Origin: Salinispira sp.
Lineage (GTDB): Bacteria > Spirochaetota > Spirochaetia > DSM-27196 > Salinispiraceae
Reading direction: 5' to 3'
DNA: 64,000 nucleotides
NCBI GenBank assembly: GCA_965602015.1
Contig: OZ271918.1
Location: forward strand, 1,696,001 to 1,760,000
Part shown: piece by piece, positions 18,059 to 46,570 of the stretch
Layout: the number at the start of each line of letters is the position of its first letter
Numbering within the stretch: the stretch's first letter is position 1
The notes under the pieces: model-generated
The model's database searches: none
Told to the model about the DNA's origin: nothing
What the model saw: only the letters and a program-made list of their open reading frames with translations
Made by a program: the position numbers and the translations under genes

Positions 18059-18509
18059 TCGCCATAGCGGGGCGTCGTGTTCTAATGGAAGAAAAACATG
18101 CGGCATTGCGACCGCCGAATATTTCCATTGTAGGATGCCCGTTTCGCTGAATCCCTTGTCCTTGATTGGTGAGCTGTCCTGTGTCCTTTTATAAATACGA
18201 AGTGTGCCGTTGGTCATTTGCTTGTCTGACCGTTTAAGAACCTGCATATGTAACTGAGGCAAGGCATCTGCCTTCGACCTCCTCTTTTGAATCAGGCTGA
18301 AACGGATACTGAATTAATTCTACGGCTGGCAATGACTGCCTGATCGTCTATATGTGTTTGGTGCAGACAAGTTCTGCTACCCAGGGAAGAATAATCCCCT
18401 CAGACAATGAATGACTTTCGGCACAGGTCGTCAGCAATCTGCTGTGGAAACGGAAATTTTTCGGGGCCGGGTTAGAAACGTCCCTTGACGTCGGGGGGCC
18501 TTATATGTG

Positions 18510-19298
18510 TTATATTGCTTGAAATTCTTCTTTATCAAAATGTCTTCTAAAAATGATTACCTGGTTGGCAAGGTAGAAAACTGTCGTAGGAATTAACAGA
18601 AGAGTGAAAATAATGTTCATAGAACTGGAGTGCATTAAATTCTCACCTCGTGTCACTGAAATTATCACAATTGGAACTATCGTTGCAGCGTAGACTACTA
18701 AAAATGGAACTATTCCAAGGATTGTATGTAGAGTATTTTGTTTATAAACTTTAATTCCAATTTTTGTAGCAGACCAAAATTGATATTTTGTTACTGTTGC
18801 AACGGGTAGGATATGCACGACCCGAACCATGCCAAATAACACAAGTACAAAAGTGACAATTATAGATATATTTAAAAAAATATTGCTGTCACTTTGGAAG
18901 GCAATTTGTAATACTGTTGGAATCATCGCACCAATTACTGCTAATAACCAATAAGGTATCAGCCTAATCAATATAAATAATATTGTAACTAAAAGACTTG
19001 GTAGTCTGCGTATAACAAAAAATAGCAAATTACTTGAAGCCCGAGGTGATTCGACCGGCTCTAATAATTTAAGAAAGAAGTATAAATAAACTATGCTGGA
19101 TAGAATCCCAAAAATAGCAATGAAAAGATAATCTCCAATCGACTGCGTTTCAATATCTCCTTGTATACTTCCAGGGCGAACTATCAGCTGTCCGAAGGAT
19201 ATAACCATTGAAAAAACGGCGAAGTGAATCAGGGGTCTTTTATTCAGAAGAATAAAGTCTTTAACTACACTAAAATGTGTTTTAAGATTTTCTATCAT
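18510..19298 (-). CDS. Cassette 19: multi-pass membrane protein
   Basis: 262 aa hydrophobic, AT-rich; stop codon lies within the ATATAAC R'' box (18509-18515). Confidence 0.8.
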   Translation of the reverse strand: MIENLKTHFSVVKDFILLNKRPLIHFAVFSMVISFGQLIVRPGSIQGDIETQSIGDYLFIAIFGILSSIVYLYFFLKLLEPVESPRASSNLLFFVIRRLPSLLVTILFILIRLIPYWLLAVIGAMIPTVLQIAFQSDSNIFLNISIIVTFVLVLFGMVRVVHILPVATVTKYQFWSATKIGIKVYKQNTLHTILGIVPFLVVYAATIVPIVIISVTRGENLMHSSSMNIIFTLLLIPTTVFYLANQVIIFRRHFDKEEFQAI

Positions 19299-19333
19299 AA
19301 AAAAAAATATATCACATTTAGTAAAATATTAGT

Positions 19334-20584
19334 GGGCACCTCTGGAAACTCGATGTTCAGCCGCCTGGATGCGCATAACACCTGGTTTTCCTTTTTACCC
19401 GCTTACTTTTTCACATCGGTAACTGCGGTCACCGATCCATTGCTATCTATTCCGGTGGTTTACCCCACTGGTTGCTTAACCAGGAAGCAGAATCTCTGAA
19501 GATTGTACACAAGGTTTCCAAGGCCAATCTCAAAATCTGCTCGTTGTAATCCTTTTCTCCGAATTACCCGGAAATTAAGAACATGCTTCTTGTGAGCAAA
19601 TACATGCTCAACCCGGGAGCGTGTTTTAGACCACAAGGCATTTTCTTTGCTCTGCTCCGCAGTAATCGGGGTACCGCGTTTTCCTTTGTGCATTATGCGG
19701 GCACAATCTTTTCCTGCTGTCCGGATTACCGCGGTTAAACATTTCTGTCCCCAGTAGCCCTTGTCCGCGAATACTTCCTGACGAAAATCCTGTTCCCTGT
19801 TCAGCACCGGCGCAAAAGACTCCGAATCATGGACTGACGCATTTGTTGAATGGTAGTCCAGTATTAACTTGGAACCGTTATCTATTTTTGCAGTATTCTT
19901 ATAGCCAAAATAGGACTTACCGTGTTTCACGGTCCAACCGGCATCCATATCAATCTGACTTCGACGAGGGCTGGATTCACTTTCTTCAGTATCCTCACTT
20001 TCAGCTTCAAATTTCTCTTTTTCACCCTTCTTAAGATGACGTTTCGGCGCTTCAATAACCTCCGCATCAACAATACGTCCATCATTCAGGATAAGTTCGT
20101 TGTCGTACAAAACAGCATCAAATCTCCCGAACAGCTTTTTCATTGCTCCTGTTTTTGTCAGCTTCTCTCGAAACTCCCAGATGGTTTTTTCATCAGGCAC
20201 CTTGTCACCGCTGCGAAGGCCAATAAAATCTCTGAAGCTTGTTCTGTCTTCAACCTGAAATTCCAGTTCCCCGTCGCTGAGATTATATATGCGTCCCAGA
20301 ATCAGCATCTTAAACTTCATCAGTTCATCGAAAGCCGGGCGTCCACCCGGTCCTTTGGGGATGCTTTTGAGGGCTCTGCGGATAATCGGCCTAAAAATTT
20401 CCCAATTAATGTGTTCATTCAGCTGCAGTAGCTTGTTACGCTTTCTAAGGCGCTCAAGTCTGGCATTTTCTTCACTGTCTGAAAATGATAATTGGGATCC
20501 CATATAAATCCTCCGGATGCAATCTCCGGTTATTCTAGGTTTATTGCCTTCCTTTGTAAATTCTTCGAGTTTCCAGAGGTGCCC
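19334..20584 (-). mobile_element. IS5-family element, copy 2
   Basis: Same IRs as copy 1; TSD TAGT (19330-19333, 20585-20588). Confidence 0.95.
19460..20503 (-). CDS. IS5-family DDE transposase
   Basis: Protein identical to 7850-8893. Confidence 0.93.
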   Translation of the reverse strand: MGSQLSFSDSEENARLERLRKRNKLLQLNEHINWEIFRPIIRRALKSIPKGPGGRPAFDELMKFKMLILGRIYNLSDGELEFQVEDRTSFRDFIGLRSGDKVPDEKTIWEFREKLTKTGAMKKLFGRFDAVLYDNELILNDGRIVDAEVIEAPKRHLKKGEKEKFEAESEDTEESESSPRRSQIDMDAGWTVKHGKSYFGYKNTAKIDNGSKLILDYHSTNASVHDSESFAPVLNREQDFRQEVFADKGYWGQKCLTAVIRTAGKDCARIMHKGKRGTPITAEQSKENALWSKTRSRVEHVFAHKKHVLNFRVIRRKGLQRADFEIGLGNLVYNLQRFCFLVKQPVG

Positions 20585-20590
20585 TAGTCA

Positions 20591-20706
20591 ATATAACAAC
20601 CACTTAACCTGTGAGCCGTAATTGGCGTGGAGTTTGCCCTGCCCTTCAGGGCAGGAATAGCAGACTCCATGACAATAGGCGAATCAGGTTGAAGTGCTTG
20701 TTATAT
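20591..20706 (-). repeat. attC site
   Basis: ATATAACAACCACTTAACCTGTGAGCCG...CGAATCAGGTTGAAGTGCTTGTTATAT. Confidence 0.93.
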
Positions 20707-21099
20707 TGCCCAATTCTCTATCTCTAACTCAGTAATCCGGCCGAAATGCTTTTCATTGTTTGTTACAAGAATCAGGTTATGTGTAATAGCTGTCGAGGCA
20801 ATCAATAAATCCATATCTGCAATAATGTTTCCATCCATTGCAAGTTTTGCTTTGAGTTGGCCAAAAGTTTCCATAACTGAATGAGTAATTGGCAGCAGAG
20901 GAAATATTTCTGCGATTCGATGAATGTTGGCCAGATTTTTTTCTCTATGAGTAGATTTATTAGCACCATATATTAATTCACCATAGGAAATAACAGAGAG
21001 AGATTTAGGTGAGTTTATATTTTTCTCGAAGTTCGATATAACCGTGGAGTGATTTTTGAGGCTATAGACTATTATGTCCGTATCAATCAAATAATTCAT
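20701..21099 (-). CDS. vapC: Cassette 18: VapC PIN-domain toxin
   Basis: YLIDTD, SYGEL, DLLIASTA, LVTNNEKHF. Confidence 0.9.
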   Translation of the reverse strand: MNYLIDTDIIVYSLKNHSTVISNFEKNINSPKSLSVISYGELIYGANKSTHREKNLANIHRIAEIFPLLPITHSVMETFGQLKAKLAMDGNIIADMDLLIASTAITHNLILVTNNEKHFGRITELEIENWAI

Positions 21100-21361
21100 T
21101 CGAGTTCTCAAAGCGATCGGAATTTCCCCTGGACCGTTTTATATCCATTACTATTTCTTCCGCAGATCGATCATCTGTCCAGCTTCCTGCCATTTGAAGA
21201 AATTCTTTTGTCGGATTTTTATGAAACTGTTCCGGTGTAGATAAATACTTTTGGATGATTAATATGACTTCTTGGCTAACCGAGCGCTTCTCCATCGCCG
21301 CCCGTTCTTTCAGCGAGTTATACAATTTATCATCGATGTCTTTCACTTGGAGATTTGCCAT
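21083..21361 (-). CDS. Cassette 18: ribbon-helix-helix (FitA-like) antitoxin
   Basis: MANLQVKDIDDKLYNSLKERAAMEKRSVSQEV; GGGAGG RBS; overlaps the toxin gene. Confidence 0.85.
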   Translation of the reverse strand: MANLQVKDIDDKLYNSLKERAAMEKRSVSQEVILIIQKYLSTPEQFHKNPTKEFLQMAGSWTDDRSAEEIVMDIKRSRGNSDRFENSNELFD

Positions 21362-21455
21362 GAGGTTCCTCCCAAACACGTATTATTCATGAAATATTAG
21401 TATATTTTCATGCAAATGTAATTGTAATCCGGAATCCTTCAGGGGTCAATATAAC

Positions 21456-23231
21456 GAGGCTGTAGAAAAAGTCCCTGCAGCCATCAATAATTCTACCCGG
21501 ACAGGCCTTTATAGGCAAAGCATAAAATGGCCTTCGTTTAATAAAGCGACTACGCCACCCTGTGTTTCCGGATTGCACTGGGAATCTCCAGTATGCCTCT
21601 CTTTCTTTTCTACTGCCAGCACATCTTCAGCTTTTCTATATTGTGCACCATACAAAACAACCGCCACTGGGTATTTACTTTTGTCTTCCCTCGCACCGTG
21701 AATCTGTTCAGCCCCTTGGTTCCGCATAAATCACCGAACACCGGTTCAACCGCCCCCATTCGCCGGGAGTAAATGCTTCGTGCCTCTGAGGTATCAAATC
21801 TGTCCTGACTAATCTTTAGGTAATCGATGGTCTGTGGCGTTTGTGTCCGCTTAAAAAACGTCACCTGCCTGAATGGACTTGCAGGTTTTCGAATACACTT
21901 GCTACGCAACTCACAATTGCTGCACTGTTCTTTGCTTGCCCTGTACCGATCCCCGACGAGCTTTCCGTCGGCGGATTTGAAATTCTTCATGTTTAGCCGC
22001 AATATATGCCCGGCCGGACAGGTAGCTATTTTCTTTTTCCGGTCGTAGTGAAAATCTGAGGGCTGGAAGTAGCGTTTGGTATGTACCGCCCTCCAGTTAT
22101 CAGTTTTCTTTTTATGAACTTCATTGCCAGTGAAGCGGATATCACGCTTGCGAAACTGATTATCCGGGATATATGCTTCAATCCCATGTTCAATGAGATA
22201 CTTCATATTCACAGCGTTATGAAACCCAGAGTCTGCTGTGATCACGGTTTTCCCGTAAATGTCAGATGAGATCCCGGTACTGCGGCATTGTTTCTTAATA
22301 CCAGTCAAGATTTCCGGCAAATGACCGGATTCATTGATATCACCATAGGCTTCGGCCCATACAATGACCTGATGTTTATCATCAACTGCAGCAATTCCAT
22401 TGTAGCCTTGAATGACACCATGGGAACTGACCATTTTTGCACTCTCATTGTCGGTGAGATTACTCTTCACCGGTTTGCCTGAGGCACCAAGCCTGTCATC
22501 ATTATCATCCAGCCAGCGGTTGATTTTATCTGCCTTGGTTTCCAGCTTTTTGATTGCTGCAATTTCCTGAACTTGATTCTCAGCAGGTGATTTCTGACCA
22601 TCCTCATTTTGATGCTTTTCAACCAGGTAGGCGATGGACTTTCTGATACTCCTGACTTTCTTCAGAAGCTCCGCCTTGGTCCCGCTCCATTCCTTGGAAC
22701 AGTTTGATGAAATCTTGCAGCCATCTATGGCAAACATTTCCTTGCCAATCAGGTTCTCTGAATAACAGATGGCAAGCACCTTGGTGAACAAATCGACACA
22801 TTCACTATCCATAGTTGCAATAAAATCGGCGATGGTGGTGTGATGCGGATGTGTATCGGCGGACAGAGCCATACAGATAATATTCTCATCACAAAACCGG
22901 GCAATCTTGCGACTGCTGGTTATCCCCCGTGAATAGGCAAAGAGAATAATCTTCAAAAGCACCGCCGGGTTATAGGCCGGGGCACCGGTAATATCATTCT
23001 GGCACCGCGACTCGAAAATAGAAAGATCAAGTTTTTTGCTGAAGAGGATGTGGAGTGTATGCTCAAATGTTCCAGGCAGAATTTGTTTTGACAGATTGAC
23101 CGGCAGCATTAACTGCTGATCGTAGGAATAGTCTTTGTATCGAGGCATGCCGTCCCTCCCATAGGCTGGCTGATACATGAATTTTACCATGGAACTACAT
23201 TTACTAGAAGCGGGACTTTTTCTACAGCCTC
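21456..23231 (-). mobile_element. IS1182-family element, intact, inserted in attC core site
   Basis: Perfect 20-bp IRs GAGGCTGTAGAAAAAGTCCC; 3-bp duplication AAC (21453-21455, 23232-23234). Confidence 0.92.
21610..23148 (-). CDS. IS1182-family transposase
   Basis: GAPAYNP, SSRKI, PHHTTIADF, IDGCKI, ADSGF, CPAG/CSNCELRSKC, VEPVFG; probable ATG at 23148 after GGGAGG. Confidence 0.9.
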   Translation of the reverse strand: MPRYKDYSYDQQLMLPVNLSKQILPGTFEHTLHILFSKKLDLSIFESRCQNDITGAPAYNPAVLLKIILFAYSRGITSSRKIARFCDENIICMALSADTHPHHTTIADFIATMDSECVDLFTKVLAICYSENLIGKEMFAIDGCKISSNCSKEWSGTKAELLKKVRSIRKSIAYLVEKHQNEDGQKSPAENQVQEIAAIKKLETKADKINRWLDDNDDRLGASGKPVKSNLTDNESAKMVSSHGVIQGYNGIAAVDDKHQVIVWAEAYGDINESGHLPEILTGIKKQCRSTGISSDIYGKTVITADSGFHNAVNMKYLIEHGIEAYIPDNQFRKRDIRFTGNEVHKKKTDNWRAVHTKRYFQPSDFHYDRKKKIATCPAGHILRLNMKNFKSADGKLVGDRYRASKEQCSNCELRSKCIRKPASPFRQVTFFKRTQTPQTIDYLKISQDRFDTSEARSIYSRRMGAVEPVFGDLCGTKGLNRFTVRGKTKVNTQWRLFCMVHNIEKLKMCWQ

Positions 23232-23341
23232 AACAACCACTTGAGCGGCGAGCCGTAATTGGCGTGGAGTTTGCCCGCCGCCAGGCGGAATGCGCAAACT
23301 CCATGACAATAGGCGAGTCCGTCTCGAAGTGCTTGTTATAT
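23232..23341 (-). repeat. attC site (original R' heptamer displaced to 21449-21455 by IS1182)
   Basis: AACAACCACTTGAGCGGCGAGCCG...CGAGTCCGTCTCGAAGTGCTTGTTATAT. Confidence 0.92.
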
Positions 23342-23346
23342 GGCCC

Positions 23347-24027
23347 TCAATATTCTACCAGATAATCTTCCTGGTAACCTTCTATAAATTTCAAAATAGA
23401 TTCATCATATTTCACTCGGATCGATTTGATAATTATCAATGTTGCAATATCAAAAAATTGCTTCGTCCTGGACATCGTGAAATATGAATTATCCAAATTT
23501 GATTTTTCATACGAGCGCGTACGGATATCAGATATCCACAGAGCAATTTCGTTTTTTGTGAGAATACCGGGAATCTCGGTTATCTCAGAGTCTGTAATCG
23601 AATTGAGAATGCCATCAAATTTATCTGGATCACCATGATAAATTGCCGATTCCAAAAAAGAATTTTCCGTTCGGTAGAGCTGTTCCCGAATATTATTACT
23701 CATCTCGGGATTGTATCGAAGTTTAAAATGCCAATTTAGCCAGTACAACATCAGGAAATCAGCTTGGAGATGAGACAACCATCCAAAAAGATAGCTGTGA
23801 TTAATCTGGCCCTCATACTTCTGGTAGAAATTCATCAGATTTTGAAATCGGACTGAAATATCTCTAGGGCCATACATATGGATGGCTCGCTTCTCATCAA
23901 GGGAAGCGTTTTTTCTCATGTGGATGGCATCGGGAGCTATACTCCCAATCAGGAACTGGCTTCGATCAAGATTGATCGTGTTGAGAATTCTGTCTGCAAT
24001 CTCAAGATGCAAAATGGTGTACGGCAT
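23347..24027 (-). CDS. Cassette 17: zinc-dependent phospholipase C-like protein
   Basis: MPxxxxH, GSIAPD, GWLSHLQAD pattern. Confidence 0.65.
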   Translation of the reverse strand: MPYTILHLEIADRILNTINLDRSQFLIGSIAPDAIHMRKNASLDEKRAIHMYGPRDISVRFQNLMNFYQKYEGQINHSYLFGWLSHLQADFLMLYWLNWHFKLRYNPEMSNNIREQLYRTENSFLESAIYHGDPDKFDGILNSITDSEITEIPGILTKNEIALWISDIRTRSYEKSNLDNSYFTMSRTKQFFDIATLIIIKSIRVKYDESILKFIEGYQEDYLVEY

Positions 24028-24081
24028 ATTTATTATTCAGCTTTCCTTATTGCAGATAGATTTCCGTTCTCCGAATAGTCC

Positions 24082-24181
24082 ATATAACAACCACTTAACC
24101 TGTGAGCCGTACATTGGCGCGTGTTTTTGCGAATGCAAAAACCGTGACAATAGGCGAATCAGGTTGAAGTGCTTGTTATAC
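24082..24181 (-). repeat. attC site
   Basis: 100-bp form with apical GTTTTTGCGAATGCAAAAAC. Confidence 0.93.
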
Positions 24182-24221
24182 GGCATTTTATCATCTTTTT
24201 AGTATTTTGATTATTATTTAT

Positions 24222-24626
24222 TTAATTTGAGATCAATTTAAGCCCATCAGTTACATACTGTTGGATTTTCTTGTCGTGTGAAATTAGTGTATATCCAGAT
24301 TCAATCGCCTGCCAGACTAACATTCGATCAAACGGATCTTTATGGTTTTCTTTTTTGGGTAAGCGATAATACGAAGTCAAAATCTCATTGGAGATCTCAG
24401 AAATTTCAAACCCCGATTTTGATATTTGGATCAATAATTGATCAGGATTGAGATCCCCCAAATCGAGTTTACCAAGAGAATATTTAATTGAAATTTCCCA
24501 TAAACTTATTCCCGACACGAATTTCTGATCTGAGGATGATTCCAAAATCTGGAGAATTTCTTTTGATAAGTTTTCGGGGTTGAAAAGTGTCCAGAGTAGG
24601 ATGTGGGTATCAACTAGATACATCAT
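24222..24626 (-). CDS. vapC: Cassette 16: VapC PIN-domain toxin
   Basis: LVDTHILLW, SLWEISIK, HKDPFDRML. Confidence 0.92.
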   Translation of the reverse strand: MMYLVDTHILLWTLFNPENLSKEILQILESSSDQKFVSGISLWEISIKYSLGKLDLGDLNPDQLLIQISKSGFEISEISNEILTSYYRLPKKENHKDPFDRMLVWQAIESGYTLISHDKKIQQYVTDGLKLISN

Positions 24627-24859
24627 TGGCCAATTAATTCTTCTTCAGTCATTTCGAAATCATTTGTGAATGCGATTTCGTGTTCTTTCAAGAGGCCAAT
24701 TTTAACTGAATGATTTTGATTTAATTCAGAGATCGGAATTAACGCTGCAACGCTTTTTTTATTCCGGCCGTATGTGATTATAATTTTTTCTCCAGATTCA
24801 ACTTCTTTAAGAATTTCAGAAAAGTGTGTTTTAAATTCTCCAACGGCAAAGGTTTTCAT
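24623..24859 (-). CDS. Cassette 16: Phd/YefM-family antitoxin
   Basis: EFKTHFSEILKEVESGEKIIIT; ATGA overlap with the toxin gene. Confidence 0.9.
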   Translation of the reverse strand: MKTFAVGEFKTHFSEILKEVESGEKIIITYGRNKKSVAALIPISELNQNHSVKIGLLKEHEIAFTNDFEMTEEELIGQ

Positions 24860-24929
24860 AGATTAATAATCTAATTATTTTGTCAACTTGTCAAGATCGT
24901 TTTCTGAGAGTGAATCAAATTTTATGTCC

Positions 24930-25044
24930 GTATAACAACCACTTGAGCGGCGAGCCGTCAATTGGCGTGGAGTGTGCCCGCCGCCAGGCGGAACAAGCAA
25001 ACTCCATGACAATAGGCGAGTCCGTCTCGAAGTGCTTGTTATAT
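24930..25044 (-). repeat. attC site
   Basis: GTATAAC...GTTATAT with conserved arms. Confidence 0.93.
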
Positions 25045-25051
25045 TCCGCTT

Positions 25052-26206
25052 CTATTCAACCTTCGTGAAGTACACTACATACTTCAATGATGTCTCTGCT
25101 GTGACTTCGCGATCGTCATTAAATTCAACTCCATTTTCTTCGAAGGTTAATGCGATTCCTCCTTTATAGAAGAATAGTCGTACTTCCCGAAATCCGACGC
25201 CTTCTCCGAATGTCCAATGGAATGGGGTATCTGCTTGAGTTTCGACAAAATATAAATCGAAATCACCTACACGAGAATTTTCTGCATAAATTCTATGGAG
25301 AGCCCTGATTGGTACGACTAGACTTTTCATTTCACTGGAAAATGTTAGCTCAATTTCAGAATTTTGAATCTGTTCAATATCAAACTCTAAATTTTCATGT
25401 TCCATAATACTGTGTGATTCATAAACATATCTACCTGCGAAATTTGTAAGGTAATCTGATGTAAATTGCTGAACGATTAGTTGAAGGGGAGCATCTATCG
25501 AACCGGCAAAAATATAAGGTTGTCTATATTCCCAAGTTCCAAGCCATTTCCTATCGGGTACATTTTCTTGATAATAGATATAAATCTGATCTCCGTCGGT
25601 CTTTAAATAGTTATTCCCATTAGAAAACGTTCGTCCATCAAATTCGAGTGTTATTTGATTGCGGATTATCTTGTTACCATTAAAAATATCGATTTCACTG
25701 ATAACAACCATCGAGTTTGAGATTGAAAGTTCCAATATTTCTGGTGCATGACCAGAACCTTGGAATCTACGAGGTAATTGCTGGACGTAGAAACCTTCAA
25801 ACTCAGTTATTTCCTGTACGGACTCAATGTTTGTGGTCTCCGGGAGTTGGAATCTGGGATAAGTCCCCGGAACTCGATTTGCGATTCTTGATGAGATTTC
25901 ATTAGCAATATTCGTTTCTATTTGCTCAATATAGCCGGAGAAGCACCAGCCGGAAAAACCTGTTTGGCTCTGCACTCTTACCCAGGGGGCAGTTATCGAA
26001 TTAATCGTTTCCACCTCCCCCGTTTCCAAAATCGTCACGGCGGTAAACTGTGGTAGCGTGGTGATTATTTCTGAATTAAGCGATTGATTTTCTCTAATCC
26101 TTAGGTTGTAGGTGACATAGTGCGTTGGAATAAATTGTTGCGCAAAAATATTTGCCGATATAATCATGAGCAAAATACATAAGAAGCGTTTCATCATCTC
26201 TCCCAT
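25052..26206 (-). CDS. Cassette 15: exported SH3-domain protein
   Basis: Signal peptide (MKRFLCILLMIISANIFA); LRIRE...WVRVQ...GWCFSGYI bacterial SH3 signature. Confidence 0.8.
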   Translation of the reverse strand: MGEMMKRFLCILLMIISANIFAQQFIPTHYVTYNLRIRENQSLNSEIITTLPQFTAVTILETGEVETINSITAPWVRVQSQTGFSGWCFSGYIEQIETNIANEISSRIANRVPGTYPRFQLPETTNIESVQEITEFEGFYVQQLPRRFQGSGHAPEILELSISNSMVVISEIDIFNGNKIIRNQITLEFDGRTFSNGNNYLKTDGDQIYIYYQENVPDRKWLGTWEYRQPYIFAGSIDAPLQLIVQQFTSDYLTNFAGRYVYESHSIMEHENLEFDIEQIQNSEIELTFSSEMKSLVVPIRALHRIYAENSRVGDFDLYFVETQADTPFHWTFGEGVGFREVRLFFYKGGIALTFEENGVEFNDDREVTAETSLKYVVYFTKVE

Positions 26207-26261
26207 CTAGATTGGAGCTATCTATCGATTCCATTAAACAACACACAGATATCATGCGTGA

Positions 26262-26376
26262 ATATAACAACCGCTTGAGCGGCGAGCCGTCAATTGGCGT
26301 GGAGTTTGCCCGCCGCCAGGCGGAATTCGCAAACTCCATGACAATAGGCGTGTCCGTCTCGAAGCGCTTGTTAAAT
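26262..26376 (-). repeat. attC site
   Basis: ATATAAC...GTTAAAT with conserved arms. Confidence 0.93.
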
Positions 26377-26395
26377 GGCGCTCCATCATCAACGA

Positions 26396-27015: not shown

Positions 27016-27020
27016 AGATA

Positions 27021-29924: not shown

Positions 29925-29932
29925 ACTGTATT

Positions 29933-37790: not shown

Positions 37791-37903
37791 AACAACCACT
37801 TAACCTGTGAGCCGTACATTGGCGTGGAGTTTGCCCTGCCCTTCAGGGCAGGAACAGCAAAATCCATGACAATAGGCGAATCAGGTTGAAGTGCTTGTTA
37901 AAT
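37791..37903 (-). repeat. attC site (original R' heptamer displaced to 33078-33084 by IS1182)
   Basis: AACAACCACTTAACCTGTGAGCCG...GTGCTTGTTAAAT. Confidence 0.92.
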
Positions 37904-37910
37904 GCCCATT

Positions 37911-38339: not shown

Positions 38340-38636
38340 CTATGCCACCCGGAGAATTTCATCGGATTGTAGCAATATTCTGCCGAATTTTTCCTGAAGT
38401 TGCAGATCGACAAGATCGATTTGATGTTCGAGCAAGAACATCAATTCTCCATAAACTTCAAAAATTTTTTCAGCGGGTATTCCCTTCACGGCTATATCGA
38501 GATCTGATTTTTCGTTTGCTTTTCCAGTTACGGCAGATCCAAAAATATAAATTTCTGAGCAACCGATGTCTTTTAAATAGGAAATTGCTTTTTCAACATC
38601 AGTTGCATATCTGGAATCCAATTTTAATTCGGTCAT
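38340..38636 (-). CDS. Cassette 10: minimal nucleotidyltransferase (MntA-like) antitoxin
   Basis: IFGS...SDLDIAV...IDLVDL. Confidence 0.9.
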   Translation of the reverse strand: MTELKLDSRYATDVEKAISYLKDIGCSEIYIFGSAVTGKANEKSDLDIAVKGIPAEKIFEVYGELMFLLEHQIDLVDLQLQEKFGRILLQSDEILRVA

Positions 38637-38644
38637 ATAATGAT

Positions 38645-38673
38645 ATTATATATTGTAGAGATTCAGTACTCAA
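38645..38673 (-). promoter_or_regulatory. Putative MNT-HEPN promoter
   Basis: TTGAGT-N17-TATAAT, 8 nt before ATG, no RBS. Confidence 0.6.
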
Positions 38674-38734
38674 CGAGTTTTTCTGTTACTCATTCCAGGA
38701 ACATGAAAAAGACGGTTATTTTCTTTTTTGGTGC

Positions 38735-38834
38735 ATTTAACAACCACTTAACCTGTGAGCCGTACATTGGCGCGCGTTCTTGCGGATGCAAGAACCGTGA
38801 CAATAGGCGAATCAGGTTGAAGTGCTTGTTATGT
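38735..38834 (-). repeat. attC site
   Basis: 100-bp form, apical GTTCTTGCGGATGCAAGAAC (compensatory change). Confidence 0.93.
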
Positions 38835-38862
38835 GGCTCATTCCTAAACCCCACCGCTCGAA

Positions 38863-39444
38863 TTATCCTTCATAAATAAATTCAAGATCACAGCCCATTT
38901 TATTTTCAAAGTAATCTCGCAATTTCAATTTATAGTTTATCGCAGAAATGAATGCCTTATTTGGATTTGTCACACGTGAGAGTACGTCCTCAATTCGATC
39001 CTCCACTCGGCATAGTCGATCAGGCAGCCCAAGAAAATCACAAAGTTGTATTAGACGATCATAATCATCATACTCGGTATTCTTCAGGAATTTTAAGATG
39101 AAAACTCGTTCAGGACTGGTATAGTCATCCATATTTTCATAGATCGCCATATTTTTATGTGTATAGGAATGTGTGATACAAATTCGAGCATGCACATGAT
39201 AGCCAAGACCTGCTAAAAATTTAAAGCCATCATATGAGTGTCTTACTTTAAAGATTCCAAACCGACGCCCAATGTCGTGAAGTAGTCCTATCTGATATGC
39301 AAAATCGGAATCCATGGATAATTTATGGGCGATTCTAAACGCGGCAAGTGCGACATTCTTTGAGTGCCCAATCCATAACCCTGGATTTAGGGTGCTGGCA
39401 TCTTCAAGAAGTTGTTCTGCTACAGAATTATCTAGTTTTTTCAT
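38863..39444 (-). CDS. Cassette 9: HD-domain protein
   Basis: HSKNVA, LLHDIGR, H, THS, LCD metal-binding pattern. Confidence 0.88.
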   Translation of the reverse strand: MKKLDNSVAEQLLEDASTLNPGLWIGHSKNVALAAFRIAHKLSMDSDFAYQIGLLHDIGRRFGIFKVRHSYDGFKFLAGLGYHVHARICITHSYTHKNMAIYENMDDYTSPERVFILKFLKNTEYDDYDRLIQLCDFLGLPDRLCRVEDRIEDVLSRVTNPNKAFISAINYKLKLRDYFENKMGCDLEFIYEG

Positions 39445-39560
39445 TTATGTAAAAAATTAGCATTGCCATAGTTCCTTATTTAGTATCGATGCCTATCAAA
39501 CTTCACAAAGTTTGGTGAAATTGAAGTAAATCGTCCCTTAAATATCTACCTATATGTTAT

Positions 39561-40142
39561 CTATTTTTTCTGCATCTTCAGAAAAAACAGTGAAGAATCA
39601 TCAGTAAGGTGAACAGAAATTACAAATCCTATCTCTCTGGCCATTCGAATAAGCTGGGTATCGGATATCTCAAAATCATATTGGTAGGGAATACCATAGC
39701 CAGTTGAAATCATTTGCTTGTTTGGCAGTTCAATTTCTAAGTTGACAATAACTGCATCATACTTCAAGTTTTCTTCTGCTATCATTATATTTGAATTCCA
39801 AATCAGTAGCTCTCCACTCTGCTTTAGAACACGAAATATTTCCTTGAGCGCAGACATTTTTTTCTCTGCCGGCAAATACATAAAAGTAAAAAATGAAGTA
39901 GCAACATTGATAGTTTCAGCAAGAAATTTCATGTCAGTTGCGTCCATGACTATTTTAATTCCATCCGAACCTGACTCTTCAAGTTCACTCCGACGATTGT
40001 CCATTGAAATGACACTGTTTTGAGTAAATGCTCTTGAAATGATTGCTTCTCCGCCACCTCCGATATCCAAGATCACATCTCTCTTATCGATTAGCTGAGG
40101 AGCAAGTTTTATGCGTTGTACATCGAGATTTAAAAAGTTCAT
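39561..40142 (-). CDS. Cassette 9: class I SAM-dependent methyltransferase
   Basis: ILDIGGGGE, MDATDMKF, RVLKQSG; start taken at ATG 40142 because the ORF-track extension crosses the attC. Confidence 0.85.
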   Translation of the reverse strand: MNFLNLDVQRIKLAPQLIDKRDVILDIGGGGEAIISRAFTQNSVISMDNRRSELEESGSDGIKIVMDATDMKFLAETINVATSFFTFMYLPAEKKMSALKEIFRVLKQSGELLIWNSNIMIAEENLKYDAVIVNLEIELPNKQMISTGYGIPYQYDFEISDTQLIRMAREIGFVISVHLTDDSSLFFLKMQKK

Positions 40143-40160
40143 TGTTCCTAAATTATGTCC

Positions 40161-40315
40161 ACATAACAACCACTTGAGCCGCGAGCCGTAATTGGCGCGT
40201 GTTCTTGCGCCGTACCTCCCTGCAGGCTTCTTCTTTTGATTGTACCCGTAGTTCCCCTCACCGCTCAAGCAAGAACCGTGACAATAGGCGAGTCGGCTCA
40301 AAGTGCTTGTTATAT
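40161..40315 (-). repeat. attC site, unusually long (155 bp) with about 60-nt apical insert
   Basis: Normal arms; GTTCTTGC...GCAAGAAC closes a long non-palindromic loop. Confidence 0.88.
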
Positions 40316-40856
40316 TGCGCACATCTTTAGGCAATCTTTTTGGTTTTTGGCTTTCAGGATATAGCAGTTTTTCGATATGATCGCAGTCAGTGAATACAAG
40401 CAGATAGGTTTAGTATCCCACGAGCCAAATACCAAAGCGCGGATGAATTTGCCGGATGCGGCAATCTGCTATGCTTTGATTTCGGTTTTTCATATCATTT
40501 CAATTTGCGCAGGGTACAAAATAGCACCTGGCTTTCAAATCGATGTTCGATCTGAATCAGAAAAAATAGATCACTGGCAAGAGATGCGAGGACAATGACC
40601 GAAAATCACTGATTACTTTGTAATAAAGCCACGCGGCAATTTCGAGCCTTTCAGAGACCATAGATTGGTGCACTATTTGCCGATCGGATCACACAGTTCA
40701 GTGCGCCAAAAATGACTTGAGCTGTGAACCTCGGCAGAATACGAATCAGGCGTTATAGCCGTTGACTCAGCAGTCACAGAATTCCAGAACCAAAATAAAT
40801 GAAGCGGCTAAATTCGACTGCAACTTCGGTTTATGCATTTCCTGAGTCAATATAAC
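40316..40856 (-). other. Cassette 8: ORF-less cassette
   Basis: About 540 bp, no - strand ORF of 60 aa or more; matching ends GTTATAT/ATATAAC. Confidence 0.75.
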
Positions 40857-40960
40857 AACCGCTTGAGCGGCACGCCGTCAATTGGCGTGAAAAATGCCGA
40901 GCGCAGCGACAAGCATTTTTCATGACAATAGGCGTGTCCGTCTCAAAGCGCTTGTTATGT
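40850..40960 (-). repeat. attC site
   Basis: ATATAACAACCGCTTGAGCGG...AGCGCTTGTTATGT. Confidence 0.92.
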
Positions 40961-40969
40961 CGCCCCTTT

Positions 40970-41266
40970 TTATCTCATACATATTATTTTGTTGAGAAAT
41001 TTTCCTTCAATATTACCTTTCAATTTCAGATAATAGGATAACCAAAGAATAATCACCAATAAAACAAAAATAAACTGAGGAATCCCCTGAAGATATCGAA
41101 ATATATTATCCAGTTGTTCGATTTGGAAATTAAGATCTCCATCTTGCCTTACCTCAAATCTTCCGACATACCATCCTCGAAGAAAATCATGCGAAAATGA
41201 AATTAAGAGGTGCAATATGTATGCAATTCCTCCAGAGAAAAGTACAATTCTTCCAGCATTATTCAT
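40970..41266 (-). CDS. Cassette 7: small two-TM membrane protein
   Basis: Two hydrophobic segments; AAGGAG RBS. Confidence 0.7.
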   Translation of the reverse strand: MNNAGRIVLFSGGIAYILHLLISFSHDFLRGWYVGRFEVRQDGDLNFQIEQLDNIFRYLQGIPQFIFVLLVIILWLSYYLKLKGNIEGKFLNKIICMR

Positions 41267-41335
41267 TTCATAAATCTCCTTTCTTCAACCTGCATTATCG
41301 AAATTTATTTCTCGCAATAATTTAAGTTGTCTGGT

Positions 41336-41944
41336 TTAAAATCCTATTTCATTTTCTAGGTGATGTAAGATCATTTCGATTTGATACATTAAATATTGCT
41401 CAGGATGATCCAATGCTATCTCAATATAGTTTTCATCAAAGTTTTCCCTAGTTAAAATTACCTCGCTCATCATTGAATTTGTTCTAATATCCAATAAATC
41501 ATTTTTCAGCTTTAGCAATTTATTTTTGTCATACCTGATGAGATATTGAACTGCAAACTTATTTGCGTCTAACTCCATTTCATATGGTGATAATTCCCAT
41601 ATATCATTCTGCACTTGAATGTAATGACCAAATTCATGAGCAATAAAAAACCAATTAAAGAGATCATGAAATATCTCGGGATCGGTTAGATTTGATGAAA
41701 TAAATTGCTTCTGCTCAGTGTTCAGTTCATTATATTTGGGTACCACAATAGTATTACTTGCTCTGTCATAGAATATTAGGAGATCTGTCGTTCGAAATTC
41801 TATTTTTGGAATGTCGCTGTACCCAATTTCGGATAAATCTTCGTTCAGTGAATTATATAGCCTTTTTGACTCGCTTAAATATGTGCATGACGTGATTGAA
41901 ATGATAATGATCAATAATCCCATGATAATTTTTATCCATTTCAT
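41336..41944 (-). CDS. Cassette 7: lipoprotein with HExxH metallopeptidase motif
   Basis: MKWIKIIMGLLIIIISITSC lipoprotein signal; AHEFGH...ELDANKFA. Confidence 0.7.
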   Translation of the reverse strand: MKWIKIIMGLLIIIISITSCTYLSESKRLYNSLNEDLSEIGYSDIPKIEFRTTDLLIFYDRASNTIVVPKYNELNTEQKQFISSNLTDPEIFHDLFNWFFIAHEFGHYIQVQNDIWELSPYEMELDANKFAVQYLIRYDKNKLLKLKNDLLDIRTNSMMSEVILTRENFDENYIEIALDHPEQYLMYQIEMILHHLENEIGF

Positions 41945-41988
41945 TAAAAAAATCATATCAGTTTGGTCCAATACTTAATCTTTTGTCG

Positions 41989-42105
41989 ACATAACAACCA
42001 CTTAACCTGTGAGCCGTACGTTGGCATGGAGTTTGCCCTGCCCTTCAGGGCAGGACAAGCAAACTCCATGCCAATAGGCGAATCAGGCTGAAGTGCTTGT
42101 TATGT
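41989..42105 (-). repeat. attC site
   Basis: ACATAAC...GTTATGT with conserved arms. Confidence 0.93.
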
Positions 42106-42168
42106 AGCTCCTTTTTCATCAGCGCAACCTGTACTACTGACTTTTTTTATTTCTGCTAATGGCAGCGC

Positions 42169-42723
42169 TTATAAGTTAGTCAAATAATTCTCATTTTGGT
42201 TCTTAATTAAGTAATTGAGTACACTAGTTTCCCTTATGATCCAAGGGAAGTTTCGATTTGCCCCCGGTTTCATTAGGGTTTTATTTTTCTGAAATGCATA
42301 GTTTGGTGATACCCATACAGGCACGATTTGGTACTCTTGTTCCATCTTTGTCAGATTAACTTCATCGAATTTATCCATATATACTGTGCTCACATAGAAG
42401 TAAGAAATCATATGAAAATAATCATACTCCGGCAGAAACGATGTTCTAAATTCCTCGGTGATTAACGCTAAATCGCGAATTTCCTCTATCCTATATCCCG
42501 TCTCTTCATTTATTTCACGAATCAATGTCATTTCATTTGTTTCGCCTGATTCTTGGCCGCCACCAGGGAAACTGTATTCGCCAAATTTATTTGACTTGAT
42601 TAAAAGCAATTTTGAATCAGATTTATCGAATATGATTCCACGGATGCTTTTGTATGATGCTATTTTAATTTTCGAGTCATTCGGATCAGGGAAATCTACT
42701 TCCAAAAATGATAGTTTTTCCAC
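42169..42723 (-). CDS. Cassette 6: NUDIX hydrolase
   Basis: PGGGQESGETNEMTLIREINEETGY Nudix box. Confidence 0.92.
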   Translation of the reverse strand: MEKLSFLEVDFPDPNDSKIKIASYKSIRGIIFDKSDSKLLLIKSNKFGEYSFPGGGQESGETNEMTLIREINEETGYRIEEIRDLALITEEFRTSFLPEYDYFHMISYFYVSTVYMDKFDEVNLTKMEQEYQIVPVWVSPNYAFQKNKTLMKPGANRNFPWIIRETSVLNYLIKNQNENYLTNL

Positions 42724-42740
42724 TAAGTCTCCCTGAGTCT

Positions 42741-42840
42741 ACATAACAACCACTTAACCTGTGAGCCGTATATTGGCGCGCGTTTTTGCGAATGCAAAAA
42801 CCGTGACAATAGGCGAATCAGGTTGAAGTGCTTGTTATGT
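42741..42840 (-). repeat. attC site
   Basis: 100-bp form. Confidence 0.93.
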
Positions 42841-43266
42841 AGTCCTTCCTTTTTCACTTATAATCTCAATCGCTTCACGAGCAGTATAGATTTGAGTCTG
42901 AGATTTCGAAAAATCCTTAAAATTCCTGGTAATAATCCAATCCAGTTCTTCCCTCTTCGACAATTCATCGATTACTGCATCTTCATAGTCTTTGATATCT
43001 GAATCCAATGCTCTTCGTAGGGTCGATTCATTTGGAGAAAGTACTGAGAGGTTGTCCAGCAGATTATTTATAATTTTATTTCTTTTATTTATCGTTGCTT
43101 TGTCTTTGTCAAGGAAATATGACAACGTGGTGATTTCATGCGCTGCGATATATCCCTTAATTATTTTCCTGCTACATAAGTCATAGATCATTAATGCTGC
43201 TTGATGATCCATTCTCTTATTGAGCATATCTATAATTATATTTAAATCAATTAATACTCTTTTCAT
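42835..43266 (-). CDS. Cassette 5: PIN-domain toxin
   Basis: LIDLNIIID, DYEDAV, IITRNFKDF. Confidence 0.9.
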   Translation of the reverse strand: MKRVLIDLNIIIDMLNKRMDHQAALMIYDLCSRKIIKGYIAAHEITTLSYFLDKDKATINKRNKIINNLLDNLSVLSPNESTLRRALDSDIKDYEDAVIDELSKREELDWIITRNFKDFSKSQTQIYTAREAIEIISEKGRTT

Positions 43267-43489
43267 GGAATTCCTTTCTCATTTCATCTTTGTCTGGGAC
43301 TTGATTTGATTCAAGAATTCCATAAATTTCTTTTGCTGATGAGGATATTTTTGAGGTGTCAATTTCTCTTTTCAAATTTAAAAAATATTTTTCGACGATA
43401 TTGGAAATCGATTGATGTGTTTTCTTAGAATATTCATGTGCAAAATCTATTAACGATTCGTCCACGTTTAGTGTAAGTTTTTTATTCAT
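43247..43489 (-). CDS. Cassette 5: RHH antitoxin (DUF6364-like)
   Basis: MNKKLTLNVDESLI...SISNIVEKY. Confidence 0.85.
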   Translation of the reverse strand: MNKKLTLNVDESLIDFAHEYSKKTHQSISNIVEKYFLNLKREIDTSKISSSAKEIYGILESNQVPDKDEMRKEFHEKSIN

Positions 43490-43496
43490 GGTAACC

Positions 43497-43534
43497 TCAC
43501 GTACAAATATATATTAATATTACGTGATTTTCAA
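43497..43534 (-). promoter_or_regulatory. Putative promoter and operator of cassette 5 TA
   Basis: TTGAAA-N17-TATATT; inverted repeat TCACGTA (43497) / TACGTGA (43521). Confidence 0.6.
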
Positions 43535-43613
43535 TATGGAAAAACTAATGGCCATTTCGTCCGACATACTTCTCTTGTTGCATGGGTTTTTCCAAGAGCA
43601 GATTTTTGGATCT

Positions 43614-43726
43614 ACATAACAACCACTTGAGCGGCGAGCCGTTATTGGCGTGGAGTTTGCCCGCCGCAAGGCGGATCAGCAAACTCCATGACAATAGGCG
43701 AGTCCGTCTCGAAGTGCTTGTTATAT
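43614..43726 (-). repeat. attC site
   Basis: ACATAAC...GTTATAT with conserved arms. Confidence 0.93.
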
Positions 43727-43750
43727 GCCGCCTCGACTACTCATACATAA

Positions 43751-44245
43751 TTACATTACTAAATCATCCAAATCAATTTCAAAATAGCTCATATCTAATT
43801 CATCATACATATATTTAAATCCAACTTTTTCGAGAACTCTTTTGCTAGGCAAATTCCTCGATGTTGTATCCGCAAAAATTTTCGAAAGTCCAAGGCTAAT
43901 TTTTGCAAAACCCAAAATTAACCGTTCAGCTTGAGTTCCAATTCCAAGATTTTTGTATTTATCATTTGCCAAAATAATGCTTAGGGTTGCTGTTTGTTTT
44001 TGGTAGTTAATTTTTTTTAGTTGGATTTCGCCTACAACTTCAGAATAGAGAAAGACACCAAAGACTCTCCGATTTGGGTCTGAAATTTTTGATTTATAAT
44101 ACGAGTCAACACTTTCAGAATCATAATGAAAGACTTGATTCGTCATTAACGGATCTGCCACGTATCTTAAATAAAAGTCATGACAATTCTCCAGGGTATA
44201 TGGTTGAATAGAGATATCCTGAATTTGCCATCTTGAATCAATCAT
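43751..44245 (-). CDS. Cassette 4: GNAT (RimJ/RimL-like) acetyltransferase
   Basis: YKNLGIGT, NLPSKRVLEKVGF. Confidence 0.88.
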   Translation of the reverse strand: MIDSRWQIQDISIQPYTLENCHDFYLRYVADPLMTNQVFHYDSESVDSYYKSKISDPNRRVFGVFLYSEVVGEIQLKKINYQKQTATLSIILANDKYKNLGIGTQAERLILGFAKISLGLSKIFADTTSRNLPSKRVLEKVGFKYMYDELDMSYFEIDLDDLVM

Positions 44246-44286
44246 AGTTTGACAGCAGTTTCCTGAATGATATTTCTGGAGTGTGC

Positions 44287-44386
44287 ATATAACAACCACT
44301 TAACCTGTGAGCCGTACATTGGCGCGTGTTTTTGCGAATGCAAAAACCGTGACAATAGGCGAATCAGGTTGAAGTGCTTGTTATAC
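44287..44386 (-). repeat. attC site
   Basis: Same as 24082-24181. Confidence 0.93.
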
Positions 44387-44426
44387 GGCATTTTATCATC
44401 TTTTTAGTATTTTGATTATTATTTAT

Positions 44427-44831
44427 TTAATTTGAGATCAATTTAAGCCCATCAGTTACATACTGTTGGATTTTCTTGTCGTGTGAAATTAGTGTATATC
44501 CAGATTCAATCGCCTGCCAGACTAACATTCGATCAAACGGATCTTTATGGTTTTCTTTTTTGGGTAAGCGATAATACGAAGTCAAAATCTCATTGGAGAT
44601 CTCAGAAATTTCAAACCCCGATTTTGATATTTGGATCAATAATTGATCAGGATTGAGATCCCCCAAATCGAGTTTACCAAGAGAATATTTAATTGAAATT
44701 TCCCATAAACTTATTCCCGACACGAATTTCTGATCTGAGGATGATTCCAAAATCTGGAGAATTTCTTTTGATAAGTTTTCGGGGTTGAAAAGTGTCCAGA
44801 GTAGGATGTGGGTATCAACTAGATACATCAT
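44427..44831 (-). CDS. vapC: Cassette 3: VapC PIN-domain toxin
   Basis: Protein identical to 24222-24626. Confidence 0.92.
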   Translation of the reverse strand: MMYLVDTHILLWTLFNPENLSKEILQILESSSDQKFVSGISLWEISIKYSLGKLDLGDLNPDQLLIQISKSGFEISEISNEILTSYYRLPKKENHKDPFDRMLVWQAIESGYTLISHDKKIQQYVTDGLKLISN

Positions 44832-45064
44832 TGGCCAATTAATTCTTCTTCAGTCATTTCGAAATCATTTGTGAATGCGATTTCGTGTTCTTTCAAGAGG
44901 CCAATTTTAACTGAATGATTTTGATTTAATTCAGAGATCGGAATTAACGCTGCAACGCTTTTTTTATTCCGGCCGTATGTGATTATAATTTTTTCTCCAG
45001 ATTCAACTTCTTTAAGAATTTCAGAAAAGTGTGTTTTAAATTCTCCAACGGCAAAGGTTTTCAT
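44828..45064 (-). CDS. Cassette 3: Phd/YefM antitoxin
   Basis: Protein identical to 24623-24859. Confidence 0.9.
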   Translation of the reverse strand: MKTFAVGEFKTHFSEILKEVESGEKIIITYGRNKKSVAALIPISELNQNHSVKIGLLKEHEIAFTNDFEMTEEELIGQ

Positions 45065-45134
45065 AGATTAATAATCTAATTATTTTGTCAACTTGTCAAG
45101 ATCGTTTTCTGAGAGTGAATCAAATTTTATGTCC

Positions 45135-45247
45135 GTATAACAACGCCTTGAGCGGCACGCCGTCAATTGGCGTGGAGTTTGCCCCGCGCAGCGGGAAAAG
45201 CAAACTCCATGACAATAGGCGTGTCCGTCTCGAAGCGCTTGTTATGC
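45135..45247 (-). repeat. attC site
   Basis: GTATAAC...GTTATGC with conserved arms. Confidence 0.92.
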
Positions 45248-46036
45248 AGCGACCTCTTTCCTCATGGTACTGCTGTTGCCCTTTATCATGAATCGAGTCA
45301 ACAAAAGCAAGATTCCAAGCAAAAAGATTGTGACTATCCATCGCATCATCGATGGAAAATCCAATGTATTTAAAAACAGGTCCCCAATATATCGAGAAGA
45401 TAAATTTACGATTCCATGAATTAGAATTGCGAAGTGAATTGAATAACCTTGAATAATAATCCAACCAAGAAAAAATCCTAATACAAGAGTAAATGAAATA
45501 AGGAGGATGGTGCCATGAATAAGTGCAAAACAGATTGTGGATACAATAAGCGATGTATATTTATAATTTTCGGTAAACGGCAGGACATCCCGAAAGATTA
45601 GCTCTTCAATAATTGGTGATAGGATCCCAATTGAGATCAGAGTGAATATTTTTCTTGTATTGTCTCCTGTGTCATACATTTGAATTATCTGGGATATTTC
45701 AATTTCAGCTTGTCCGGGAAAAAATATGTGTCCGATATTCCATGAAAATGAGATGAAGCTTATTCCCCAAAATAGCATAATCAATACCTGAAAGGGATCC
45801 ATCTCCGGTTTTTGAAATACATTCGAAAATAATCTTTTGCTTGGGAGCAATAGCATAAGAATTAGAAAGATAAATTTTCCAATAGCTACCCGTTCGGGAA
45901 ACTGTGAAGATGGATTGATGCTTATATTATATCCAGTATCATTTTGGGTAATTGTTGTGGATGCAAATACGAGAGTAAGAAAATATAAGAATACCAGGAG
46001 AAGCATGAATAGTAAGGGTTTTCCTGGAAATTTCAT
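45242..46036 (-). CDS. Cassette 2: CPBP (CAAX/Abi) intramembrane protease
   Basis: PIIEELIFR, FALIH, ILIHGIVN motifs. Confidence 0.9.
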   Translation of the reverse strand: MKFPGKPLLFMLLLVFLYFLTLVFASTTITQNDTGYNISINPSSQFPERVAIGKFIFLILMLLLPSKRLFSNVFQKPEMDPFQVLIMLFWGISFISFSWNIGHIFFPGQAEIEISQIIQMYDTGDNTRKIFTLISIGILSPIIEELIFRDVLPFTENYKYTSLIVSTICFALIHGTILLISFTLVLGFFLGWIIIQGYSIHFAILIHGIVNLSSRYIGDLFLNTLDFPSMMRWIVTIFLLGILLLLTRFMIKGNSSTMRKEVAA

Positions 46037-46069
46037 ACTCGGTGTATCCTATAAATCATTCTTGCGTCT

Positions 46070-46169
46070 GCATAACAACCACTTAACCTGTGAGCCGTAC
46101 ATTGGCGCGCGTTTTTGCGAATGCAAAAACCGTGACAATAGGCGAATCAGGTTGAAGTGCCTGTTATAT
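46070..46169 (-). repeat. attC site
   Basis: 100-bp form. Confidence 0.93.
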
Positions 46170-46570
46170 GGCCAAATCTTTCAACAACCAAGATCAGTTC
46201 CCTACACCTTGTTTCCAACCTTCGACCCGCTTTCAATTATGATCCACTAAACTACGCAGATTTTCAATAATCTCACCGAAGTAGCTGCGGGAGTGAGGGA
46301 AAAACCAGATTAACCCCCGGTCTACTTCTCGAATCCCCTAATCCAAACGAGAATCCAATTTCAAAACATTTCAGGATTCAACCTCCACCCCGATGTTACT
46401 TGCCGAGGGAATCACTTACATAATTCCAATCTTCCAGGGAAGCCCAAGCAAAAACACCAAAAATTTTCCAATCAGATTCGAGTAATAAAATGAAGAGCGA
46501 ATGATCTTTAAAGCCCGAAGAAGCCCGGTATTCAAGAAATTGTGAGAACATGAAACTTCGTCCATATAAC
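46170..46570 (-). other. Cassette 1: ORF-less cassette at attI
   Basis: No self-contained ORF; homologous to 32686-33084. Confidence 0.85.

Follow-up and report, generated by a model that had tools for sequence, protein, structure and literature searches.

The 64,000-nucleotide stretch of Salinispira sp. DNA considered here (the window; contig OZ271918.1, positions 1,696,001 to 1,760,000) contains a chromosomal integron, composed of an intI gene, an attI site and an array of 19 cassettes on the minus strand. The subject of this report is the stem formed by the two ends of a single cassette, and in particular one T that this stem leaves unpaired. attC sites are usually described with three unpaired features and an R box of 7 base pairs (bp). 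Of the attC sites in the array, 18 are complete and one, at 18509, is truncated; the sites are co-oriented and accompanied by intI and attI, which by the criteria tested is the arrangement of a sedentary chromosomal integron. The bottom, recombined strand of the array is the plus strand of the window.

The integrase is the single match above the TIGR02249 cut-off in the 3.87 Mb genome examined. Its closest solved relative is VchIntIA (2A3V; E 2.6e-72), to which it aligns over residues 104-417, including the W219/P232/H241 region that marks the IntI-specific insert. The R box of attI (46562-46570), at which cassette 19 starts, matches the end of that cassette and is not followed by an attC core. 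In all 18 complete attC sites the central spacer is 5+5 and the canonical T follows 9 bp of L arm; the first extrahelical base is G in 16 and A in two. Four contig sets of one sample carry the same letters as the window, with joints at repeated elements and ordinary depth; circle forms are not visible in them, although contigs drop rare forms.

The start of each cassette was compared with its own R'' end. Position 10 is an A on the top strand (A10) and a T on the bottom or plus strand (T10). In the following list, the closing entry of each cassette gives the cognate bp, the skipped T10 with its plus-strand coordinate, and the bp past T10; ORF stands for open reading frame and IS for insertion sequence.

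46714..47973, plus strand: intI, integron integrase, 419 amino acids (aa); TIGR02249 380 bits, cut-off 265
46557..46590, minus strand: attI; R box ends at 46570, T10 at 46561 belongs to cassette 19
20595..46165, minus strand: 18 complete attC cores, 92-147 bp from AAC to GTT; L arm of 9 bp, then the canonical extrahelical T
46163..46570, minus strand: cassette 19, no ORF of at least 60 aa, near copy of cassette 9; 9 + T46561 + 1
45241..46076, minus strand: cassette 18, CAAX protease, stop inside R''; 9 + T46067 + 2
44380..45141, minus strand: cassette 17, Phd/PIN pair, copy of cassette 4; 9 + T45132 + 3
43720..44293, minus strand: cassette 16, GNAT; 9 + T44284 + 1
42834..43620, minus strand: cassette 15, DUF6364/PIN, stop inside R''; 9 + T43611 + 3
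42099..42747, minus strand: cassette 14, NUDIX; 9 + T42738 + 3
40954..41995, minus strand: cassette 13; 9 + T41986 + 1
40309..40856, minus strand: cassette 12, no top-strand ORF of at least 60 aa; 9 + T40847 + 1
38828..40167, minus strand: cassette 11, methyltransferase, HD; 9 + T40158 + 1
37897..38741, minus strand: cassette 10, nucleotidyltransferase/HepT-like; 9 + T38732 + 3
33085..37790, minus strand: IS1182-like element, split by an IS21-like element, directly after R' AAC of cassette 9
32679..33084, minus strand: cassette 9; 9 + T33075 + 1
29918..32592, minus strand: cassette 8, C5 methylase, NgoFVII-type nuclease, Vsr; 9 + T32583 + 5
29045..29820, minus strand: cassette 7, stop inside R''; 9 + T29811 + 2
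26370..28941, minus strand: cassette 6, Vsr, IS256-like, Gp49/HTH; 9 + T28932 + 2
25038..26268, minus strand: cassette 5, SH3 protein; 9 + T26259 + 3
24175..24936, minus strand: cassette 4, Phd/PIN pair; 9 + T24927 + 3
23335..24088, minus strand: cassette 3; 9 + T24079 + 1
21456..23231, minus strand: IS1182-like element directly after R' AAC of cassette 2
20700..21455, minus strand: cassette 2, FitA-like/PIN, stop inside R''; 9 + T21446 + 3
18509..20597, minus strand: cassette 1, contains an IS, attC truncated to R'', stop inside R''; 9 + T20588 + 2

In all 19 cassettes, positions 1-9 match, A10/T10 is skipped and one to five further positions match. This is the pattern that the first-pass annotation of the window had described, and the three pairings it quoted as examples (32578-32592 with 29918-29931, 43608-43620 with 42834-42845, and 38729-38741 with 37897-37908) were all recovered. 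Past T10 there is one pair in seven cassettes, where it is mostly consensus, two pairs in four, three in seven and five in one. Cassettes 2 and 9 match only once the IS1182-like elements at 21456 and 33085 are removed; with cassette 4 identical to 17 and cassette 9 nearly so to 19, there are 17 distinct window cassettes. Shuffled ends attain nine pairs, a skipped T and at least one further pair in 3% of pairings. When the ends of the 17 cassettes are permuted, positions 5-9 give 85 matches against 49.9 expected (p 1e-5), and nine pairs plus at least one are seen in 17/17 against 1.5 (p 1e-5). The first pair past T10 (17 against 13.5, p 0.007) is mostly a constant C:G, present in 78% of non-cognate pairings, whereas the second and third pairs are cassette-specific and together give 21 matches against 10.8 (p 1.3e-4). 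Chance is ruled out by these permutations, and the covariation of paired ends claimed earlier is real.

The same genome harbours another array, with about 15 related attC sites (G000:C1, about 3439700-3456750, i.e. 3.44-3.46 Mb); this array has no integrase but its own attI-like site at 3456701. Several cassettes are common to both arrays, in different order. Its 14 pairs, a fifteenth being split by an IS and excluded, all carry A10, with one mismatch at position 8. Two isolated attC-like sites lie outside both arrays, at G000:C1 3339522-3339634 and 3619306-3619388, the latter truncated. Pooling of the two arrays gives 33 pairs, 24 of them distinct. In these 24, the run before the skip is exactly nine, resuming past one skipped base, and the R'' base facing position 10 is never complementary (24/24 in both respects); the unbulged register shows no excess of matches at positions 10-13. 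Past T10, the second pair is matched in 17/24 (6.3 expected), the third in 15/24 (7.7 expected) and the fourth in 8/24 (7.0 expected, not significant). The signal is nine pairs, one skipped base and about three more pairs, a stem of about 12 bp; the '4-5 bp' seen past T10 are chance, because the excess is gone at the fourth pair.

Five ORFs (cassettes 1, 2, 7, 15 and 18) stop within R'', so that, as had been noted before, the 3' side of the match is in five cassettes the end of the ORF. The last codons of cassette 2 fall within R'', where a Trp codon supplies positions 11-12, which are matched by the non-coding start; this Trp is kept in 120/120 of the best 120 of 726 homologues. Here the start follows the gene end, as expected under copying and under selection alike; it is one case. 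Most of these VapC homologues (proteins P0001-P0120) stop two residues past the conserved Trp, and their tails are often of Ala/Ser-Thr type, compatible with an overlapping R'' box, which hints that many are cassette-borne.

Two relatives share the bulge, a same-genus genome with eight cassettes, three of them resolved by removing the same IS as in the window, and a same-family genome with seven. A10 occurs in 14/15 of these cassettes, and matches past T10 number 28 against 13.9; kin genomes are not independent, and the surveyed genomes are samples.

Circularisation of the cassettes in silico and folding of the 18 sites gave a consistent picture. In predicted folds the cognate form, i.e. that of the excised circle, is on average 4.7 kcal/mol more stable than the form within the array (17/18 sites), where the unbroken R stem averages 5.7 bp; the extension exists in the cognate form only, in agreement with the earlier proposal that it forms in the circle. 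Against shuffled ends, the comparison suggested by the same annotation, the cognate form is more stable in 18/18 sites, by a mean of 4.8 kcal/mol. T10 is unpaired with a probability of 0.81-1.0, and the first pair past it has a probability above 0.8 in 11/18 sites and of 0.12-0.58 in seven. Removal of T10 would gain about 2.5 kcal/mol. Stability is accordingly rejected as the reason for T10, which is never paired although its removal would stabilise the fold.

Other integrons were surveyed in stretches beside intI genes, with a detector whose only inputs are the AAC/GTT triplets, each with a single neighbouring base, the L box and the inner fold. All 18 window sites are recovered, and 1 Mb of control DNA, searched on both strands, yields two false ones. 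Adjacent pairs spaced by less than 150 or more than 1500 bp were left out, as were near-duplicates and arrays with under three sites; for Pseudomonadota, 243 of 292 pairs were kept. Among these, the cognate match exceeds the within-array null up to position 12 (0.35 vs 0.25; 0.48 vs 0.34), declining gradually over positions 8 to 12, and equals it at position 13 (0.21 vs 0.23; 0.21 vs 0.19). Unbroken runs 12 long occur 48 times, longer ones four times. In one array with 30 sites (L194, G915:C1:3101300-3121299) the pairing of cognate ends runs without a break for exactly 12 positions in most cassettes and goes no further. Judged from these sequences, the long cognate stem is a general attC property, in Pseudomonadota and other spirochaetes included, and its limit is 12 bp in several lineages, whether the bulge is present or not. 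A stem beyond 7 bp is therefore not new, contrary to the first-pass annotation; it is also documented, in the passages of PMC2727003 discussed below, as a general property. The bulge is a different matter. Nine pairs, bulge and at least two pairs are found in 17/24 cassettes of this genome against 4/243 in Pseudomonadota. A same-order genome has unbroken stems of 8-16 bp (bulge in 0/10). Five Treponema-like arrays (family f3) have A10 in 42/43 and G9 in 39/43, with a cognate stem that ends at 8 bp and the bulge in 0/43, and 20 pairs from other phyla have A10 in seven and the bulge in one. A scan of 27 arrays, array by array, found no other bulge position that stood out. The bulge as a general attC property is thus rejected: the survey that had been called for finds it in two relatives and hardly beyond. 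In sequence terms, A10 occurs widely in this class, and the true bulge is a trait at the level of the family. Actinomycetota and Planctomycetota stretches held too few sites for comparison, and viral and metagenome sequences yielded a single locus each. The Treponema-like cassette starts (L111, L114, L115, L117 and L119) share a fixed G9-A10-C/T11, behind which there is often a small GC-rich hairpin.

The position of the skipped base provides a clue to its possible role. Counted outwards from the central spacer, with inner unpaired bases excluded, the L arm has nine pairs and then the canonical extrahelical T in 30/30 sites of the genome; this register was taken from the arms written out, rather than from an automatic bulge-position score. 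T10, too, is separated from the central spacer by 9 bp and is carried by the strand directed towards it, as T23/24 is on the L arm. The same distance and the same strand polarity relate the two bases by the two-fold axis of two IntI monomers, and by this register T10 is the dyad-symmetric counterpart of T23/24. Since it is never paired and sits at the mirror register, the integrase monomer at the R box probably reads it. Larouche and Roy 2011 (PMC3053210) state, in the part seen, that T12''/T24 is bound in cis by P232/H240/H241. The window IntI carries the pocket residues P330, Y338 and H339 in the alignment to VchIntIA. Tyr338 (region 47725-47727) takes the place of the His by which VchIntIA stacks on T12'', and 7/113 aligned IntIs have Tyr there; a link of this change (H240 to Y338) to the bulge was rejected, the two bulge-bearing relatives having H and W there.

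An A at outward position 10 is also present in attI L arms: in that of the window, which begins at 46577 (46577-46590), in both attI sites of the genome, in the same-genus genome and in class 1 attI1, although it is not general among other inferred attI sites. The loci concerned are, besides the window, L215, L172 7805 and L173 8805. Xer/dif ancestry of A10 was considered and dropped; no convincing dif site was found in the genome.

According to passages of PMC4792948, binding begins at the R box, and in attI1 mismatches in the R box lower it; PMC2727003 reports, in the portion seen, that relocating T20/T24 onto the opposite strand makes that strand recombine more. It seems to us an evenly balanced proposition, drawn from sequence comparison, that the circle stem of about 12 bp is the full landing site of the R-box monomer, with T10 as a twin of T23/24 that would help docking on the bottom strand. 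The crossover at G/TT joins a cassette's own ends only in the circle, where the stem is complete, with the 12-bp limit seen by comparison and its T at the register of T23/24. Selection may then keep this stem, a fully paired R arm presumably binding IntI better, which would favour reinsertion of the circle over excision from the array. T10 would enter the Pro/His/His pocket of the R-box monomer and add both affinity and strand choice, the latter because the top strand never has an equivalent T. The retention of A10 in the Treponema-like arrays even without outer pairs counts in favour of this docking proposal. The first-pass annotation had suggested an extra recognition element favouring integration: T10 is a plausible element of this kind, because it mirrors the known T23/24 base, but it may favour integration or act as a brake, the L-side T24 being reported to disorganise the active site of the monomer that binds it.

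Several observations weigh against the docking proposal. Most integrons function without the bulge (4/243 in Pseudomonadota, 0/10 in the same-order genome). In the same-genus genome, two of eight cassettes have A10 without a bulge and no pair past it; one of them pairs A10 in an unbroken stem. In the models, T10 would be frayed rather than bulged at 7/18 sites, because the pair past it is predicted to be unstable there. No compensatory change was found in 33 homologous cassette pairs among 422 cassettes, a comparison of low power; six of the 33 differ (one is a detector artefact), and the differences are one-sided. By analogy, a T24-type contact on the cleaving monomer could also inhibit, because T24 bound in cis is reported, in the part of PMC2727003 seen, to disorganise the catalytic site of the binding monomer and not to be essential for attI x attC recombination. 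Isolated mismatches in 150 well-paired Pseudomonadota stems comprise 16 bottom-strand G.T, three top-strand G.T and 23 others (p 0.03 for the bottom-strand bias against composition); this wobble bias speaks for selection on the folded bottom strand and hence for the docking proposal, although it could also stem from C deamination on the exposed strand.

The end match may alternatively be, as the first-pass annotation also suggested, a footprint of cassette creation, in which about 12 bases of one end were copied from the other across the folded attC by fold-back synthesis or template switch, one fixed base being added or skipped in this lineage and neutral decay following. We regard this as unlikely. 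The sharp stop at 12 in L194 and the one-sided, uncompensated differences between homologous copies are what copying would leave, and the Trp codon of cassette 2 would give it a direction, from gene end to cassette start; yet selection would just as readily make the start adapt to the gene end. Copying would moreover require a non-templated base after exactly nine, coinciding with the mirror position of T23/24, and it sits poorly with a match that fades gradually from position 8 to 12, with G.T wobbles that favour the bottom strand, and with the A10 that Treponema-like arrays retain without outer pairing. The fixed unpaired base after nine and the wobble bias fit selection better than copying.

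Two further explanations concern T10 itself, and to each we would give still less credence. T10 may act as a brake, docking in a T24-type pocket and, by analogy with T24, partly disabling the cleaving monomer, so that mobility is lowered and the chromosomal array stabilised. T24 in cis is indeed described as drawing the catalytic tyrosine away (passages of PMC2727003 and PMC4792948), and T10 is present on every R' arm, in circle and array alike, because it travels with the downstream cassette. The array is nonetheless clearly shuffled, the same cassettes recurring in other order within and between the two arrays, and a brake leaves unexplained why the outer pairs covary in the cognate form only. 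Equally doubtful is that the bulge is an inert by-product: A10 would be read in double-stranded attI, the right arm of which is always the first cassette's start, and the R'' end, under separate selection for pairing, would lack a partner for it. The A at outward position 10 of attI L arms (both sites of the genome, the same-genus attI and class 1 attI1) lends this weak support; A10 without outer pairing in Treponema-like arrays also fits it. Against it, 24/24 ends skip A10 although pairing would be more stable, inferred attI L arms do not generally have A10, and the attI R box, as PMC4792948 notes in the part seen, is altered by each insertion.

The docking proposal can be extended to a broader one, which we put forward tentatively and consider somewhat doubtful as a whole. 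The attC of this family would have a fourth feature, a flipped-out R-arm T related to T23/24 by the dyad and recognised by the cleaving monomer; together with the universal 12-bp cognate stem it would make the circle a better substrate than the site in the array, and hence a built-in ratchet for insertion. The functional attC would then be 12 bp longer on each side than annotated. If T10 is read by IntI, the model of one monomer switched off and the other active needs revision, because the same signal would face both monomers. The 12-bp limit provides a precise boundary, either for the integrase footprint or for the step by which cassettes are made. In practice, the end match can serve as a check of cassette boundaries and of ISs hidden at attC sites.

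IS1182-like elements inserted directly after the R' AAC of attC, with AAC repeated on both sides, were seen in five cases in two genomes (window 21456-23231 and 33085-37790; L215 1230, 4628 and 12930). Such an insertion parts the cassette start from the upstream attC core. Toxin-antitoxin pairs are abundant in the cargo of the window (20700-45141), with four PIN cassettes, HepT/nucleotidyltransferase and Gp49/HTH, and a restriction-modification-Vsr cassette is found there as well. Upstream of the array, amid ISs, lies an ALIL pseudoknot (RF01497, 107 bits, 11906-12022).

The stem itself has a published counterpart. Bouvier 2009 (PMC2727003), in the passages seen, reports with reference to Rowe-Magnus 2003 and Sundstrom 1991 that the self-pairing of most cassettes spans 9-11 consecutive nucleotides, and PMC2095811 gives simple-site arms of 9-13 bp. 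In both the published stem and the present one, cognate ends pair beyond the 7-bp R box, here over nine consecutive positions in all cassettes. The published pairing is consecutive, whereas here it is broken by an invariant T after pair 9 and resumes to about 12, the limit that the present survey finds in place of 9-11. The passages seen of PMC5027507, PMC2095811, PMC7439510, PMC5371416 and PMC7790495, and likewise those of PMC2761259, PMC3607928, PMC12614218 and PMC2811028, mention no R-side unpaired base. No description of the bulge was found in the literature searched, which excluded most subscription papers, supplements and the source papers for the 9-11 nucleotides, so that a prior mention is possible. 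The stem is thus already documented, as the first-pass annotation had allowed might be the case, and the mirror-position T, which is lineage-specific, appears undescribed in the searchable literature.

Among known arrays, the sedentary chromosomal integrons of Treponema (Wu et al. 2013, PMC3607928, seen in part) likewise have a chromosomal intI, an array of attC sites related to one another and G9-A10 cassette starts. They differ in that the stem of Treponema-like arrays ends at 8 bp, without pairing past position 10, and in the orientation of intI, which here is divergent from the array. The nearest likeness to T10 is T23/T24 (T12'' in VchIntIA-VCR, PDB 2A3V): each is an unpaired T after 9 bp from the spacer, on the strand towards it. 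T10 differs in its place on the R arm, beyond the conventional limits of attC and within the downstream cassette, in being lineage-specific, and in facing the cleaving monomer, to which its binding is putative.

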